Part shown: one piece after another, positions 13,894 to 54,668 of the stretch
Numbering within the stretch: the first letter of the stretch is position 1
Layout: each line of letters opens with the position of its first letter
From: a virus
Taxonomy: Duplodnaviria; Caudoviricetes
Direction: 5' to 3' (one strand)
DNA length: 64,000 nucleotides
IMG/VR virus record: IMGVR_UViG_3300042554_001750
The notes under the pieces: model-generated
The model's database searches: none
Told to the model about the DNA's origin: nothing
The model's input: only the letters and a program-made list of their open reading frames with translations
Position numbers and translations under genes: made by a program

Positions 13894-14115
13894 TTAAAAT
13901 AACTTTGGGGGAAGAGTTTGGCTTTGGAGATAACGCTGCCAACGTTTTTTAGCTTGATTCTTTGCTAGTTTCTTTTTAATTGTTGGCTTGACATATGACT
14001 GACGGTTTTGTAATTCCTGTAATAATCCATCCTCCGCAATTTTCTTTTTAAATTTGCGAAGTGCTTTGTCCACATTACCGTCATGAACGATAACTTTTTT
14101 ACCTTTTATATTCAT
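13894..14115 (-). CDS. rpsU: 30S ribosomal protein bS21
   Basis: NVDKALRKFKKK..GLLQEL..YVKPT..K; SQTLPPKLF tail resembles betaproteobacterial bS21. Confidence 0.9.
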   Translation of the reverse strand: MNIKGKKVIVHDGNVDKALRKFKKKIAEDGLLQELQNRQSYVKPTIKKKLAKNQAKKRWQRYLQSQTLPPKLF

Positions 14116-48670: not shown

Positions 48671-51385
48671 TTAACCGAAACTAAACAAATCATCAAATGT
48701 TGAATTTGTATCTGTGTTGCTACGCAAATCCCAACCTAACACACCTAGCAAGTTTTCAATCTTTTCGTCAACTAGTGTGCGTTCCATTTCACTATCATCA
48801 AACGGCAACTCACAGAACCATTGAGGCAATCTAAGTTCGTCAGTTGGATAAGCAATACTTGTAAAGTTCAATGGATTGGGTTTAAGTTTACAAACAATAA
48901 CCTTCATTCCGTCAACAATCTTCATACTATAGTTGTCACTGTTGACACGGCGTAGATAGTTGTAGTTTAGTGCTCCTCTGACATGTCCGGGCATATTAGC
49001 ACGACCTGTTGGGCTTTTCTTTTCTAGTTCTTCGTAATATGTAAGTTTGTTTACAGACTTAGGACTACCCTTTGTCCAACTATCCTGTGCAGATAAGATC
49101 CGTTTGAAACCTTTGATAGCTTCAATTACTTCGTCACGACCCTTACCTTGTTGAATGACCATGCTCAATATATTCATTAAGAATTCTTGAACATACTTAG
49201 GAGTATCAGCCCGTTTCAAATCAAGACCCATAGCCTTGATATCACCCAGTTTGCCATCTTTATCTTTGCGCTTACCTTCTTTATCAAAGATATTGATTGC
49301 ATAACGCTTCTTAGTAATAAAGATAGTACGGTCACCAATTAATTCACGACCAGCCTTGATGATTTCACCGTTCTTGCGAGGCGCGTGAAATGCACGTTCC
49401 ATGAATGCGGGGAATGTGTCATTTGTTTGTTCAGCAATACTATCGTATAAACCTATACAAACATCCTTGTTCCATTCTAATTCATTATTATCTATTTGTG
49501 TTTTAAGAATAGGATAAGCACTAAAGTAGCATGAGTCAGTATCCCCGTATACAATTGCGGGACCATTATGATTGTATTCGCCTTCTACAATTTCATTGAT
49601 CTGGCTCATCATGTGTTTAACAATCTGACGACCACTCAATGTTACTGATTGACCAATGCGTTTATCATAGAATCGGCAATGCTCATTCAAAAGTGCGCCA
49701 TACGCAGAGTTAAGCAAAATTTTACGGACAAGCTGTCGTTTGTCGTAATATTCATACATATCAGTGCCGTATGCTTCCTTAGCTTGCTTTTGAATTGACT
49801 TCCGTTCTGTATACCAGCGTGATAACAGACCTGGAATTACACCTTCAGTATCATACCTAAAGATTGTTCCATTAGCACTAAGAATAAATGGATTGTGACT
49901 ATCAAAGATTAATTTCCATATCTCAGCAGCACTCATTTCTACGCTATCACCATTTTCATAGTCAAGTGTAAGCATAGTACCACGCTCTTGGCGCATGATT
50001 GCTTCATATTCTAATGAACCAAATAAACCTTCCCAGAGTATCGCGCCAGTTACTTCTTCATCATCGTCCTTGGCACGTTTCTTTTCACTGGCTAGCCTTC
50101 TGCCTTTATCTCGCATGTACTGGTCAGTAAGTGTTTGTCTGACTTGTCCAACGATTGTTTCGGGGGCCATGTTAAGGGCGCGAATAGCCGAGGGATAGAG
50201 CGAGTTAATGTCAACTGCACCGACCCATTCGTGGATGCCTCTTTTGGGCGTAGCAACATAGGCACCTGCCGCTTGTTGTTCATCTGTATGATTTTCCTTT
50301 CGTCGTTTATCGGGTACTACCATACCACGTTCATGAGCCTCGTTCATGATTGCCATTTCAATCATTGCAACAGACCCCATGACAGTTGGCAATAGCACAG
50401 TATTTTCATGTGCTAGTGCATTAGCTAAATCTAAAAACTTAAGTTTATTATGAATCTTAACAAGCAACATTGTATCTTGGCGATTGTATTCTACGAACCT
50501 TTTAAAGTCCTTGTTATACAATTGATCCAATGTACCTTCGTACTGTGTTTTGTTTTCACCGACTTCCATTTCACCAATGAAGTCCAATTTATAACTATGC
50601 CGACTTTCATAGTTGTACTTCTTATACAACTGCAAATAGTCCATATGAACACGACCAACTAGATCATATGTTGTTTCTTCTTTACCGAAACGCTCATAGG
50701 TTCTTGGCTTGGGAAGTTGACCAAGCAAACAAAACTTGCGTGTGTCATCCTTGCTCATAACCCTTGTTACACGGTTAACCATGTAGGGTATATCATAGCC
50801 TTCTGAGTTCCAACCAGTAAGAATATCAGCATCCTCAATCAGTTGAAAGAATGTTTCAAACATTTCTATTTCACTACGGAACAGAAGTGTGTTGGGCATA
50901 TCTTTAACTAAATCGTGTGCAGTTTCATCTGTCATGCCGCGAGGAGGGATGACAAGGGTAACTAGTTGGTCTAGCCAATCTAGGTATAGACTGATTGCAG
51001 TTACAGGATTGAAGGGATCACTTGTGGGACTAAAACCCTTTTCAGGATCAAAGTCAACCTCAATGTCAAAGAAGCATGTATGTAGCTTGGGACTTTCTAC
51101 CCCAAGATAATTTTCGCTTAGACAACGGAACACAACGTTGATATCACTTTCAAACAATTTCTTGTTTGCGTGAATCCTGCGTTCCTTTTCAAATTCACTA
51201 CGCTTGCGTGAACTGAATTTAGTTACCTTATCTCCGAAGATGCTATGATATTTGCCTTTTAAATCGCTGAAATAAAAAGTATAATTGCAAGGATATTCCT
51301 TGTAGGTTCGTTTACCTTCAGGAGTTCGTTCTACTACATAGATGCGGTCACTATCACGGTCATGGATAGCATCAATATAACTCAT
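48671..51385 (-). CDS. family B DNA polymerase (T4 gp43-like)
   Basis: FDIEV exonuclease I, WNSEGYD, YNRQD, DINSLYPS, KILLNSAYG, YGDTDS, KKRY. Confidence 0.97.
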   Translation of the reverse strand: MSYIDAIHDRDSDRIYVVERTPEGKRTYKEYPCNYTFYFSDLKGKYHSIFGDKVTKFSSRKRSEFEKERRIHANKKLFESDINVVFRCLSENYLGVESPKLHTCFFDIEVDFDPEKGFSPTSDPFNPVTAISLYLDWLDQLVTLVIPPRGMTDETAHDLVKDMPNTLLFRSEIEMFETFFQLIEDADILTGWNSEGYDIPYMVNRVTRVMSKDDTRKFCLLGQLPKPRTYERFGKEETTYDLVGRVHMDYLQLYKKYNYESRHSYKLDFIGEMEVGENKTQYEGTLDQLYNKDFKRFVEYNRQDTMLLVKIHNKLKFLDLANALAHENTVLLPTVMGSVAMIEMAIMNEAHERGMVVPDKRRKENHTDEQQAAGAYVATPKRGIHEWVGAVDINSLYPSAIRALNMAPETIVGQVRQTLTDQYMRDKGRRLASEKKRAKDDDEEVTGAILWEGLFGSLEYEAIMRQERGTMLTLDYENGDSVEMSAAEIWKLIFDSHNPFILSANGTIFRYDTEGVIPGLLSRWYTERKSIQKQAKEAYGTDMYEYYDKRQLVRKILLNSAYGALLNEHCRFYDKRIGQSVTLSGRQIVKHMMSQINEIVEGEYNHNGPAIVYGDTDSCYFSAYPILKTQIDNNELEWNKDVCIGLYDSIAEQTNDTFPAFMERAFHAPRKNGEIIKAGRELIGDRTIFITKKRYAINIFDKEGKRKDKDGKLGDIKAMGLDLKRADTPKYVQEFLMNILSMVIQQGKGRDEVIEAIKGFKRILSAQDSWTKGSPKSVNKLTYYEELEKKSPTGRANMPGHVRGALNYNYLRRVNSDNYSMKIVDGMKVIVCKLKPNPLNFTSIAYPTDELRLPQWFCELPFDDSEMERTLVDEKIENLLGVLGWDLRSNTDTNSTFDDLFSFG

Positions 51386-51645
51386 AGAGTCTTGCCAACT
51401 GCCTCTAGAATAGTATTCAAATCATCGTGTTCTTGATTGGCTTGTGTTAGACTAGCCTTGTGTGCAATACGGATAGCCTTCTTTAATACACTGGGCTTTA
51501 CTTCCAATTCTTCTGCGATTGCCTTAACTGTGTCACTCAAACCCTCATTCAATGTTTCAATCTCATGCATGACTGCCATGCCTTCATTGATGAGTTGGGT
51601 CAGTTTGATCTTTTGATCGCCACTAAAAGTCTTAGATGTAGTCAT
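51382..51645 (-). CDS. T4 DsbA/GapR-like dsDNA-binding protein
   Basis: INEGMAVMHEIETLNEGLSDTVKAIAEELEVKPSVLKKAI. Confidence 0.7.
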   Translation of the reverse strand: MTTSKTFSGDQKIKLTQLINEGMAVMHEIETLNEGLSDTVKAIAEELEVKPSVLKKAIRIAHKASLTQANQEHDDLNTILEAVGKTL

Positions 51646-52296: not shown

Positions 52297-53001
52297 TTAT
52301 TGAAAGATGTGATGGTTCTGTTCGCCGTAAATCTTAATATATTTTCCAGCAAGTGCATCAGCCATTACCTCAATTGGGCTACCGGGATAACTATCACCCG
52401 GTTGAATCATATTCAATTCACCTTGGCGAACATGCACCAACTCATGGAAAACAGTTCTAAGAATATCTACAAGGTTACGGTTTTTAGCATAAACCCAAAC
52501 CTTATTGGAACCCTCAGTATGGCTACCTGTATGATGACCGTCTTGTGCTTCTTCGGTATCCATGCTAAGTTCTATTTCTGGGCGGGTTTGTAAATTCAAT
52601 CGTTTACGAGCCCAATCCGCAAACTTATTAACTTCATCCTCTAAATCACACTCAACATTTGCTTCGTCTAATTTACCTTTTATCCATTTATCTGGAGTTT
52701 CTTTATACTTTCGTTTAAATTTATTGTGTAATAACTCGCTTGTCATGTGATGGCGTTTAGCGATTTTTCTAATCAATTGATCAATAGTATTGTAATCATG
52801 CTTTGATAAGCTAGGTAACTTTTTTGCTAATTCATGTTCTGGTGATTCATACATGCTTTCGCCGCCGCCACCTCCGTCACCACCATCTGATTCGCCGGAG
52901 CCGAAACCAAAGTATCCGTAACCGGGAAAGAAATATCTACGTAAGGATTTTTTCCTAGACTTAGATTTTTTACGTTCGGTGATAAATTCAGTCGCTCTCA
53001 T
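52297..53001 (-). CDS. late tagged protein with zincin (HExxH) domain
   Basis: MRATEFITE; Gly-rich linker; VFHELVHVRQ..EVMAD. Confidence 0.75.
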   Translation of the reverse strand: MRATEFITERKKSKSRKKSLRRYFFPGYGYFGFGSGESDGGDGGGGGESMYESPEHELAKKLPSLSKHDYNTIDQLIRKIAKRHHMTSELLHNKFKRKYKETPDKWIKGKLDEANVECDLEDEVNKFADWARKRLNLQTRPEIELSMDTEEAQDGHHTGSHTEGSNKVWVYAKNRNLVDILRTVFHELVHVRQGELNMIQPGDSYPGSPIEVMADALAGKYIKIYGEQNHHIFQ

Positions 53002-53015
53002 AATAAGTATTTATC

Positions 53016-53450
53016 TTAACACCAACTCTGTTTGGCTTCACCGTAATATTCACGGGCAAAACCATTTTGAATCAGCATACTACGAAGGCTTTGTCCGTTA
53101 AGTATAATATCTCCTAGAACACGACCCCCAAACTTATCCCAATCATATAATACAACTTGGCGCTTTTGTGCGTTTGCTACTGCTTGTTTTGTAAATGCAC
53201 TTGCAGCTTGTCCACGCTGATCTTCCTGCGGGCATTTAGCACGGAATCCTTTCTCAGGTGTGTCAACCCCAAAGACACGAACTGCTAGTTCTTTCTTTAA
53301 TGGTGCTGGTAAAAAAGGTGCCTCTATGACTACAGTATCACCGTCATTTACCCTAAGAATATTAGCATCATAAGTTACACCTTGAGGTTTCTTTTGTGCA
53401 TAAGCAGTTGACATTAACGCTAATAAAACTATTGCTATTATTTTTTTCAT
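53016..53450 (-). CDS. secreted staphylococcal-nuclease family protein
   Basis: signal peptide; VNDGDTV, VRVFGVDTPE, DKFGGRVLG, GFAREY. Confidence 0.9.
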   Translation of the reverse strand: MKKIIAIVLLALMSTAYAQKKPQGVTYDANILRVNDGDTVVIEAPFLPAPLKKELAVRVFGVDTPEKGFRAKCPQEDQRGQAASAFTKQAVANAQKRQVVLYDWDKFGGRVLGDIILNGQSLRSMLIQNGFAREYYGEAKQSWC

Positions 53451-53464
53451 TCTTACTCCGTAAT

Positions 53465-53561
53465 AAAATGCTCACTTTGTAGTTTCACGGTAGCGAATCG
53501 TTACTCCTAAAGCCAGCAGCCGGCTACACCACGCAACGGATTGCGGTCCTAAGGTGGGTTC
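53465..53561 (-). ncRNA. uncharacterised structured RNA candidate
   Basis: GC-rich island in an AT-rich region; stems CGCAA/TTGCG, CACC/GGTG, AGCCGG/CTGGCT; GTAGC/GCTAC alternative pairing. Confidence 0.5.
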
Positions 53562-54668
53562 TTAAACTCTTGCTAATACAAATTGATTACCTTCAGCTTG
53601 TGGTTGATTTGCAATTTCTGGTGGTAAATCACTATATGGAATAGGCTTATACCCATATCTACCTGCGAATCTACGAATCATAGCTTGATACGCACTTGTC
53701 CTTGAGCCACCTTTACTCGCAAATAATATATAGTCCGGAACATTTATGTTTTTCAAATATTCGTTGAATGCTTTTAATACCGTAGCAAAAACTTTACCTG
53801 CATCACCTTCGCCAGTTTTTTCATATGTGCCACCTCTAGTGAAATCAAAATCAATCGCATTGATTTCTTCATGTAATGGGGTAAAGATAACTTCAATGTC
53901 ACGACCTTCACTATCATGTGCTACCGCAACATTGGCATATGTTTCATCATCTTCATACCAACTTTCAATTGGAAAAGATTTTTCAACATCAATTGATTCA
54001 TTTGTTTGTTTTTGTTGTGTTATCCATTGTCTAGCTTGTGGCTTGTTGGGCGGTGCGTTCGTAAATTTAACTAATTTTTTATAGGTATTTTGAATTTGAG
54101 ACTCGGTGCTAGCGCCATCACCACTATTGTCTATGATTGACAAATTATCAAATATCTGGGCAAATTTTCCAATATTGTTTTGAACATCATACCAGCTTTG
54201 TACTACCAATTTATCAGGTACAGTTCTTGTTCTTTGTTGATTGCGCTTTCGTGCTACTTCTAATTCTGTGTTGACAACAACAAGAAATGTATTATAACCT
54301 AATGCATCAAAGTTATTTTTTAACTTAGAAACTTTTTCATAGTCGTCGCCGGTACCGTCAATTACAAGACCCAATCTCCCGTCAATTGCTAGTTCTGATT
54401 TATCAGCAGTGATATCTTTTGCTTTTTGTCTTACAACATCACGCTTTTCTTTTTCTTCAGGTGGCATTTTAGGATCAATTGCATGTTTTTTCATTAGATA
54501 TTCAAAAGCAATATCACTATTGATGTTTACATATCCTAAAGCCTGTAACCCTAATTTTTGAGTAACATAACTTTTACCACTTCCGGGACCACCGATAATA
54601 AACACTGCTTTGAAAATAGCAGGGTCATTTACACCTTCACTGACATTAGTGAATTCTACGGCTCTCAT
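53562..54668 (-). CDS. late tagged P-loop kinase/NTPase (zeta-toxin/AAA_33-like) fused to TGEGDA module
   Basis: MRAVEFTNVSE|G; IIGGPGSGKS; NSDIAFE; LVIDGTG; ARKRNQQRTR. Confidence 0.8.
   Translation of the reverse strand: MRAVEFTNVSEGVNDPAIFKAVFIIGGPGSGKSYVTQKLGLQALGYVNINSDIAFEYLMKKHAIDPKMPPEEKEKRDVVRQKAKDITADKSELAIDGRLGLVIDGTGDDYEKVSKLKNNFDALGYNTFLVVVNTELEVARKRNQQRTRTVPDKLVVQSWYDVQNNIGKFAQIFDNLSIIDNSGDGASTESQIQNTYKKLVKFTNAPPNKPQARQWITQQKQTNESIDVEKSFPIESWYEDDETYANVAVAHDSEGRDIEVIFTPLHEEINAIDFDFTRGGTYEKTGEGDAGKVFATVLKAFNEYLKNINVPDYILFASKGGSRTSAYQAMIRRFAGRYGYKPIPYSDLPPEIANQPQAEGNQFVLARV

Follow-up and report, generated by a model that had tools for sequence, protein, structure and literature searches.

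What fills the gap between a P-loop kinase-like open reading frame (ORF) at positions 53562-54668 (-) and a staphylococcal-nuclease ORF at 53016-53450 (-) is the question raised by this locus, which lies in a 64,000-nt stretch of DNA (hereafter, the window) belonging to a 108-kb IMG/VR phage record estimated to be 31% complete. The initial annotation had singled out a GC-rich sequence of the minus strand here as a structured RNA. The quoted sequence is indeed found at this place and on this strand, and the gap is filled by an element, a structured RNA of ~96 bases encoded at 53469-53564 (-), with a G+C content of 0.47-0.49 compared to 0.30-0.39 beside it. The upstream ORF encodes 368 aa with an N-terminal P-loop kinase domain (Zeta_toxin, AAA_33), and its UAA stop codon (53562-53564) lies within the 5' motif of the RNA. 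The nuclease ORF encodes a staphylococcal-nuclease homologue of 144 aa, and the element lies 10 nt upstream of its ribosome-binding site.

No known RNA family accounts for the element, in agreement with the impression, gained by eye in the initial annotation, that it fits no tRNA or other familiar RNA. Searches with the Rfam 15 covariance models at gathering score yielded no matches in the whole 64-kb window and, at E <= 10, only two irrelevant chance matches in the region 53350-53700, both outside the element; ARAGORN predicted neither tRNA nor tmRNA genes in the window. A ribozyme, one of the options that had been proposed, finds no support: no Rfam ribozyme family (hammerhead, twister, pistol, hatchet and HDV-like RNAs among them) was matched, there is no conserved hammerhead core motif (CUGAUGA occurs in 0 of 187 elements among the matches listed), and the conserved bases reside in swappable hairpin loops. 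Folding of the single sequence was not better than that of its shuffled versions (z = +0.76), and the same holds for the opposite strand, so that the case for structure rests on the relatives of the element rather than on energy.

Homologues were first met at loci fetched via the nuclease protein, where all of them are on the strand of the nuclease gene, some upstream and some downstream of it. A three-block sequence pattern retrieved at least 120 viral contigs, and two further patterns, each omitting one of the blocks, retrieved at least 120 contigs each; altogether, at least 187 distinct element sequences were collected from IMG/VR phage contigs. The RNA is thus conserved in giant T4-like phages, none of them cultured, that number in the hundreds. 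A covariance model with 18 base pairs was built from a seed of 35 sequences aligned on anchors, and 94 elements were realigned with it. In this realignment, 90.7% of the cells form a standard pair (64.3% in shuffles) and 394 cells are changed on both sides (135 in shuffles), counts that do not represent independent events, given that the sequences are related; the realignment is, moreover, itself a fit to the model. Covariation scored 0.521, compared to 0.139 in shuffles, a value reached by none of 500 shuffles; the slid controls scored at most 0.08. All five helices (P1, P1a, P2, P3 and P3a) display compensatory changes, and in an independent mutual-information scan of all column pairs, the top 11 pairs are all inside the model. 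When RNAalifold was applied to the raw MAFFT alignment, only P2 was recovered because the variable stems were misaligned, a problem that was solved by the anchored seed and the covariance model.

The proposal of a novel structured non-coding RNA is therefore borne out by conservation in hundreds of phage contigs, by compensatory changes in all five helices and by the lack of a matching Rfam family. The three nested stems originally noticed are real, CACC/GGUG corresponding to P1, GCAA/UUGC to P1a and AGCC/GGCU to P2, and each is confirmed by covariation in the relatives. Two further details did not survive the comparison: the suggested crossing pair GTAGC/GCTAC sits in variable stem sequence and left no pseudoknot signal in the mutual-information scan, and the second copy of the TTAGGA direct repeat is not kept in the relatives. 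Pseudoknots between the tail and the P3a loop or the P2 loop were likewise rejected, as the tail is constant while both loops change; no mutual-information signal was found for either among all column pairs.

From 5' to 3', the RNA consists of the UAAGAAC motif, P1 enclosing the unpaired junction block and the optional P1a, P2 with a fixed 7-nt loop, P3 followed by an internal loop and P3a with a 9-nt loop, and a single-stranded tail (Table 1). The junction block can also be written as UUAGGACCG, with UAGGACCG as its invariant core. The stem sequences vary freely with pairing kept, and four unpaired blocks are nearly constant, an invariance that is partly imposed by the search patterns, every one of which fixed the tail and at least one other block.

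Table 1. Coordinates, within the window, of the parts of the RNA and of the start signals of the adjoining nuclease gene.
Feature	Position	Strand	Remarks
5' motif UAAGAAC	53558..53564	-	AAGAAC conserved in the 5' flank of relatives
P1, 5' strand CACC	53553..53556	-	Pairs with 53527-53530; 4 of 5 helix 1 pairs change on both sides
P1, 3' strand GGUG	53527..53530	-	Covariation
Junction block J1, ACCUUAGGACCG	53544..53555	-	Exact antisense of E. coli 23S 1920-1931 (helix 69 3' strand and linker)
P1a hairpin, GCAA-UCCG-UUGC	53533..53544	-	Helix 2 compensatory in 4 of 4 pairs; optional in relatives
P2 hairpin, stem AGCC/GGCU, 7-nt loop GGCUGCU	53511..53525	-	53512-53522 is exact antisense of 16S 517-527 (530 loop)
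P3 outer stem	53507-53509 with 53480-53482 (P3 spans 53480..53509)	-	Followed by internal loop; compensatory in all pairs
P3a inner stem	53499-53501 with 53487-53489	-	Compensatory in all pairs; helices 4 and 5 are P3 and P3a
P3a loop, 9 nt	53490-53498	-	
Block UUCGCUACC	53489-53497	-	Exact antisense of 23S 1929-1937
3' tail AAAGUGAGCA, single-stranded	53469..53478	-	In every element examined, all search patterns having included the tail
Nuclease ORF, GGAG ribosome-binding site (53456-53459) and ATG (53448-53450)	53448..53459	-	Outside the RNA family

What the nearly constant blocks might be for became apparent from their sequence. A literature search with the string of the junction block returned papers on 23S rRNA, in which, judging from the titles, this string appears to be a primer against rRNA. 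The rRNA operon of E. coli was used as a reference, standing in for that of the host. The best exact rRNA matches of the window element are all antisense and all located inside the conserved blocks: the junction block matches 23S positions 1920-1931 over 12 nt, the P3a loop block matches 23S positions 1929-1937 over 9 nt, and P2 matches 16S positions 517-527 over 11 nt, its loop core covering 519-527 of the 530 loop. The 16S match is weaker than the two 23S matches. The latter two blocks are ~50 nt apart in the RNA and abut on the target, together covering 1920-1937 without a gap (18 consecutive bases), and the possession of two conserved unpaired blocks with complementarity to neighbouring bases of the helix 69 foot and of helix 70 is a feature of the family. 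The decoding centre contains the 530 loop and adjoins the intersubunit bridge formed by helix 69. The antisense match of the conserved loops to rRNA, at sites that are universally conserved, is the decisive feature of the element and had been missed in the initial annotation.

The chance of a 9-mer match to 4.5 kb of rRNA is a few per cent. In the window element, the lengths of the three longest matches sum to 32, compared to 25.2 +/- 1.7 in 5000 dinucleotide shuffles, 13 of which reach 32. Across the family, there are 1572 antisense 8-mer matches, as opposed to 552 sense matches and ~590 in shuffled elements, and the antisense matches concentrate at 16S 517-528 and 23S 1917-1937. Some members carry 24 nt antisense to 23S 1908-1931 (the helix 69 loop and 3' strand) at 92-96% identity (E ~1e-5 per query), P1a of some relatives being almost identical to the antisense of the loop of helix 69. 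In most members, P1a covaries freely, and hence pairing with the helix 69 loop cannot be general. As the two element-carrying MAGs lacked an assembled 23S rRNA, a Saprospiraceae 23S was used for comparison, in which the target is identical over 1900-1965.

The conservation of the blocks was also assessed with patterns that did not include the block in question. Among the matches listed, the CCUUAGGNCC pattern was found in 103 of 113 elements collected without the use of the junction block. Core changes in this block are exclusively A-to-G, opposite U1923 or U1926, such that a G-U pair with 23S rRNA is kept, and the other changes are confined to the edge where P1 takes over. Of the elements listed that were found by a pattern leaving out P2, 94 of 101 have an unchanged 9-nt P2 core; the closing C is altered in four, and a mid-loop G is replaced by U or A in three, which speaks against strict pairing with 16S rRNA because such changes would break it. 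The P3a loop varies, with at least four versions. The usual one is antisense to 23S 1929-1937 and a second one matches 23S 1966-1976, with up to 11 nt exact, and for two others, 6-nt matches at 1938-1943 and 1964-1969 were seen by eye, weak ones noticed after the fact. That the swapped loops all appear to point at a single 50-nt stretch of 23S rRNA supports a role in pairing. The tail matches 7-8 nt of antisense rRNA (7 nt at 23S 1099-1105 in the window), which is not significant alone. A search for phage messenger targets of the conserved blocks in the 64-kb window produced none that was convincing; an 11-mer with one mismatch is located near position 954. The predicted thermodynamic accessibility of the blocks is 0.41-0.60, a modest excess over the background of 0.38. 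Taken together, these comparisons suggest that the RNA may base-pair with host rRNA, a reading to which we assign a probability of about one half.

The same likeness could have another origin, with the RNA binding a protein or acting as a catalyst and the antisense blocks being a trace of descent from an old capture of rDNA in reverse orientation, in which case there would be no pairing with rRNA. A compact multi-stem RNA with conserved junction and loop bases would fit such a role, as would the conservation of the tail and the 5' motif in the lack of a convincing rRNA partner, and P1a of some members does resemble a copied antisense helix 69. However, three separate blocks match two different rRNAs, which is not given by a single capture; the 23S blocks, far apart in the RNA, are immediate neighbours on the target; exchanged P3a loops again fall on this part of 23S rRNA, and core changes retain G-U pairs; and no ribozyme family or motif was matched. 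We consider this explanation unlikely.

Complementarity to rRNA also implies likeness to rRNA on the other strand, and the functional transcript could conceivably be the opposite (+) one, mimicking pieces of rRNA and diverting, as a decoy, a protein that binds rRNA or a toxin that cuts it. This strand does carry sense copies of the 530-loop and helix 69-70 sequences, and the folding energies of the two strands are similar (-25.5 versus -24.7 kcal/mol, p = 0.07, no significant separation). Yet, in the helices, G-U oppositions exceed A-C oppositions by 60 to 27, with one misregistered pair set aside, and by 16 to 1 in P1a alone; the element shares the orientation of the flanking genes in ~85% of the loci, being on the strand of the upstream ORF in 102 of 115 loci among the matches listed; and on the + strand the blocks would be split, permuted and placed in hairpins unlike the native rRNA folds. 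A decoy function thus appears highly improbable, and in view of the G-U excess and the orientation with the flanking genes, we take the gene strand, antisense to rRNA, as the one that is probably functional.

With the covariance model, one copy was detected in the window, which is the sole copy of the whole 108-kb record, and three contigs of 262-353 kb each proved to contain a single full copy. A complete relative, with a 352-kb genome bounded by terminal repeats, carries one full copy. This genome additionally contains a shortened second copy (G028:C1:76943-77021; L306:1044-1122 +) located between two ORFs of the same strand, which keeps P2, the P3a loop and the tail, and is without the junction block and P1a. 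A second weak model match in another contig (G029) was rejected as a chance match, the region looking coding. A further relative (L016:2220-2323, +) keeps the junction block and the P3a loop, but has a different P2 hairpin, with a GGGAACCC-like loop, and a different tail, indicating that the modules are exchangeable. BLAST searches with the locus and with a high-scoring family member against GenBank phage records found no member of the family.

Among 185,579 species genomes of cellular organisms, the pattern occurs only twice, in phage-like contigs of GTDB MAGs assigned to Lishizhenia (L216) and Haliscomenobacter (L217), both Bacteroidota; one of these contigs is 183 kb long, and both share the phage gene order of the family. 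That both contigs were binned with this phylum hints weakly at the phylum of the host. Strong GGAG ribosome-binding sites nevertheless precede many genes of these phages, which is odd for Bacteroidota, as these bacteria make little use of such sites.

Most of the genes upstream of the element, the kinase-like gene of the window included, fall into a single loose family encoding modular proteins. Downstream, a protein of 86 aa (phrog_12534 / phrog_639) is encoded in at least 57 loci and a T4-type DNA polymerase in at least 18. The window has both of these neighbours, at 51382-51645 (-) and 48671-51385 (-), respectively; the 86-87-aa protein, annotated as 'transcriptional regulator', precedes the T4-type DNA polymerase. 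Across the family, the RNA marks the border between a block of variable modular genes and the replication block. In most loci among the matches listed, the stop codon of the upstream ORF lies 3-13 nt ahead of the junction block or is a UAG inside it (22 loci), with its frame and distance varying between loci; at other loci, the UAA of the 5' motif serves as the upstream stop. Because these stops are at or inside conserved blocks, ribosomes ending the upstream gene would unfold P1. A sigma-70-like promoter stands no more than 25 nt beyond the tail in at least 20 of 119 loci, and a T4-late-like box in at least 16 of the 119, both of which are rare upstream of the element; by a strict pattern, at least ~35% of the relatives have a promoter-like site within this distance. 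In the window, there is no promoter-like or terminator-like site at the element, and none between the element and the nuclease gene. No Rho-independent terminator was recognized either, there being no terminator-like site in 53000-54000 and the U-rich run coming after the 8-nt tail rather than after a stem. Given the adjacency to stop codons and the promoters that follow, the RNA is most simply viewed as the end of the upstream transcript, not as a leader of the nuclease gene.

The initial annotation had placed the RNA upstream of the nuclease gene and offered cis-regulation as one reading. As a general description, this is not supported: relatives carry the element upstream, downstream or far from the nuclease gene, and a promoter-like site is often found between the element and the next gene. 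For the same reasons, along with the differing downstream genes and the lack of a terminator, a riboswitch or another 5' leader regulator of the nuclease gene was rejected. A broader version of cis action is that the RNA is an intercistronic or 3'-UTR structure acting after the stop codon on its own messenger, by protecting the end, by marking a processing site or by holding released subunits through rRNA pairing, as in the termination-reinitiation of caliciviruses. The close upstream stop codons, the lack of a promoter or terminator of its own and, in the window, the short distance to the nuclease ribosome-binding site are all compatible with such a role. Nevertheless, the genes of a compact phage genome would be tightly spaced in any case, a single copy in a genome of 350 kb rules out a general expression device, both neighbouring genes vary, as do the frame and distance of the stop codon, and a promoter behind the tail means that the next gene is probably translated from another messenger. 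We regard action in cis as unlikely.

An RNA with antisense blocks could also be a guide or splint for a phage enzyme that cuts, modifies or repairs rRNA where the loops hold it. Small nucleolar RNAs (C/D, H/ACA and U3) and the calicivirus TURBS work via short antisense elements to rRNA, and the H/ACA guides are bipartite; the bipartite antisense of the phage RNA abuts near 23S 1928/1929. Furthermore, three large relatives encode a protein of the RNA ligase family, and the P-loop kinase domain encoded upstream (AAA_33, Zeta_toxin families) is of the general kinase type of T4 polynucleotide kinase. T4-like phages, however, commonly encode RNA ligases for other purposes, there is no consistently adjacent partner gene, and an RNase III domain is absent from the four genomes checked. 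The snoRNAs and TURBS belong to eukaryotes, archaea or eukaryotic viruses, and the boxes of C/D guides are missing here: among the matches listed, the C box (RUGAUGA) is found in 0 of 187 elements and the D-box tetramer CUGA is not conserved, occurring in 52 of 187 and at no fixed place. The pocket geometry of H/ACA guides is not seen, the antisense blocks being on one side of an internal loop and in a terminal loop, not on both sides of one pocket. A guide for a phage enzyme seems quite improbable.

Pairing with host rRNA, the reading that we favour, can be examined in phages that are available in culture. Vibrio phage PWH3a-P1 (NC_020863.1, ~80875-80992; L308:689-806 +) contains a related element in an unannotated 470-nt gap after a stop codon. 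The junction block of this element has a change that keeps a G-U pair; the element further comprises the second 23S block and an almost exact antisense of the loop of helix 69, and it has no P2. Four further Vibrio phage isolates share the same 24-nt BLAST match, and the relatives include qdvp001. Like the family of the window, the Vibrio phage element presents two conserved exposed blocks complementary to adjoining 23S sequences around 1908-1937, lies after a stop codon on the gene strand and is apparently single-copy per record in the BLAST matches. To this design, the window family adds P2 with its antisense of the 16S 530 loop, the invariant AAGUGAGC tail and the interchangeable P3a loops. 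With the covariance model of the family, the Vibrio element reaches no more than 11 bits, and the two groups of elements seem to be related in design rather than clearly homologous throughout.

The organization of the RNA, with variable stems displaying short conserved loops complementary to a target, is shared with CopA/CopT of plasmid R1 and RNA I/RNA II of ColE1. As in CopA and RNA I, some members of the family carry a hairpin fully complementary to the target hairpin, in this case, helix 69. The difference is that CopA and RNA I are encoded opposite their target genes and act on a messenger or primer, whereas the target proposed here is the rRNA of another organism, approached via several short blocks. 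We know of no ribosome-associated non-coding RNA of bacteria that has extended Watson-Crick complementarity to the rRNA of a functional centre, nor of any that is encoded by a phage. Ribosome-associated non-coding RNAs as such have been reviewed, an example being SprF1 of S. aureus, which binds at the subunit interface (PMC8938821). Like the RNA described here, these are proposed to act on the ribosome itself rather than on a messenger. A review (PMC12916000) lists an antibacterial PNA of 13 units, tried on E. coli K12, as directed against helix 69 (Kulik 2017); the target region is the same, but the PNA is a man-made single oligomer, not a natural folded RNA. Comparative prediction from viral sequence data of the kind used here has produced 10,006 candidate structured RNAs (Fremin et al. 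2023; PMC10690425), and the motif may be among the unnamed candidates of that study, the text of which covers tRNA-like elements, terminators and the gp20 and gp32 leaders, and not rRNA complementarity. Our literature search turned up no report of an RNA, from phages or from bacteria, with complementarity to helix 69-70 or to the 530 loop.

How the RNA would engage the ribosome can be outlined as follows. It would be made as the tail of the transcript of the upstream gene and may be cut out of this transcript, with the stems acting as a scaffold that holds out the conserved blocks to host rRNA. Positions 1920-1937 of 23S rRNA, at the foot of helix 69 and in helix 70, would be clamped between the junction block and the P3a loop, and the P2 loop would pair, less surely, with the 16S 530 loop. 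Considering that 1920-1924 are paired inside helix 69 in the mature 50S subunit, the likeliest targets would be free 50S subunits with a breathing helix 69 or late assembly intermediates with domain IV undocked. Such pairing could interfere with the ribosomes of the host or with their assembly, or could capture them, and protection is conceivable as well. A bolder and more tentative possibility is that the RNA docks simultaneously on several sites of the functional centres, namely, the 16S 530 loop, helix 70 with the foot of helix 69 and, perhaps, helix 44 of 23S rRNA, ringing the A site and the intersubunit bridge, and is a natural anti-ribosome or ribosome-capturing RNA. Tampering with the ribosome is plausible for this phage, as it also encodes, at ~13894-14115 (-) in the window, a 73-aa homologue of ribosomal protein bS21 (PF01165, 57 bits). 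A bS21 gene is also present in a second RNA-carrying contig of 300 kb and absent from the complete 352-kb relative, in the genome of which the shortened copy of the RNA retains the tail.

Because cultured Vibrio phages carry a related element, the idea is testable at the bench now. If the pairing is real, it represents an undescribed route by which phages reach the translation machinery, and, the rRNA targets being so conserved, a single RNA design would fit almost any bacterial host. Apart from the Shine-Dalgarno interaction, no natural RNA of bacteria or of their viruses is known to pair in the Watson-Crick manner with the catalytic core of the ribosome, and the RNA described here would be the first. 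It would bear on how antisense antibacterials directed at helix 69 and the 530 loop are designed, on the question of which rRNA surfaces are reachable in living cells and on how giant phages take over, or spare, the ribosomes of their hosts.
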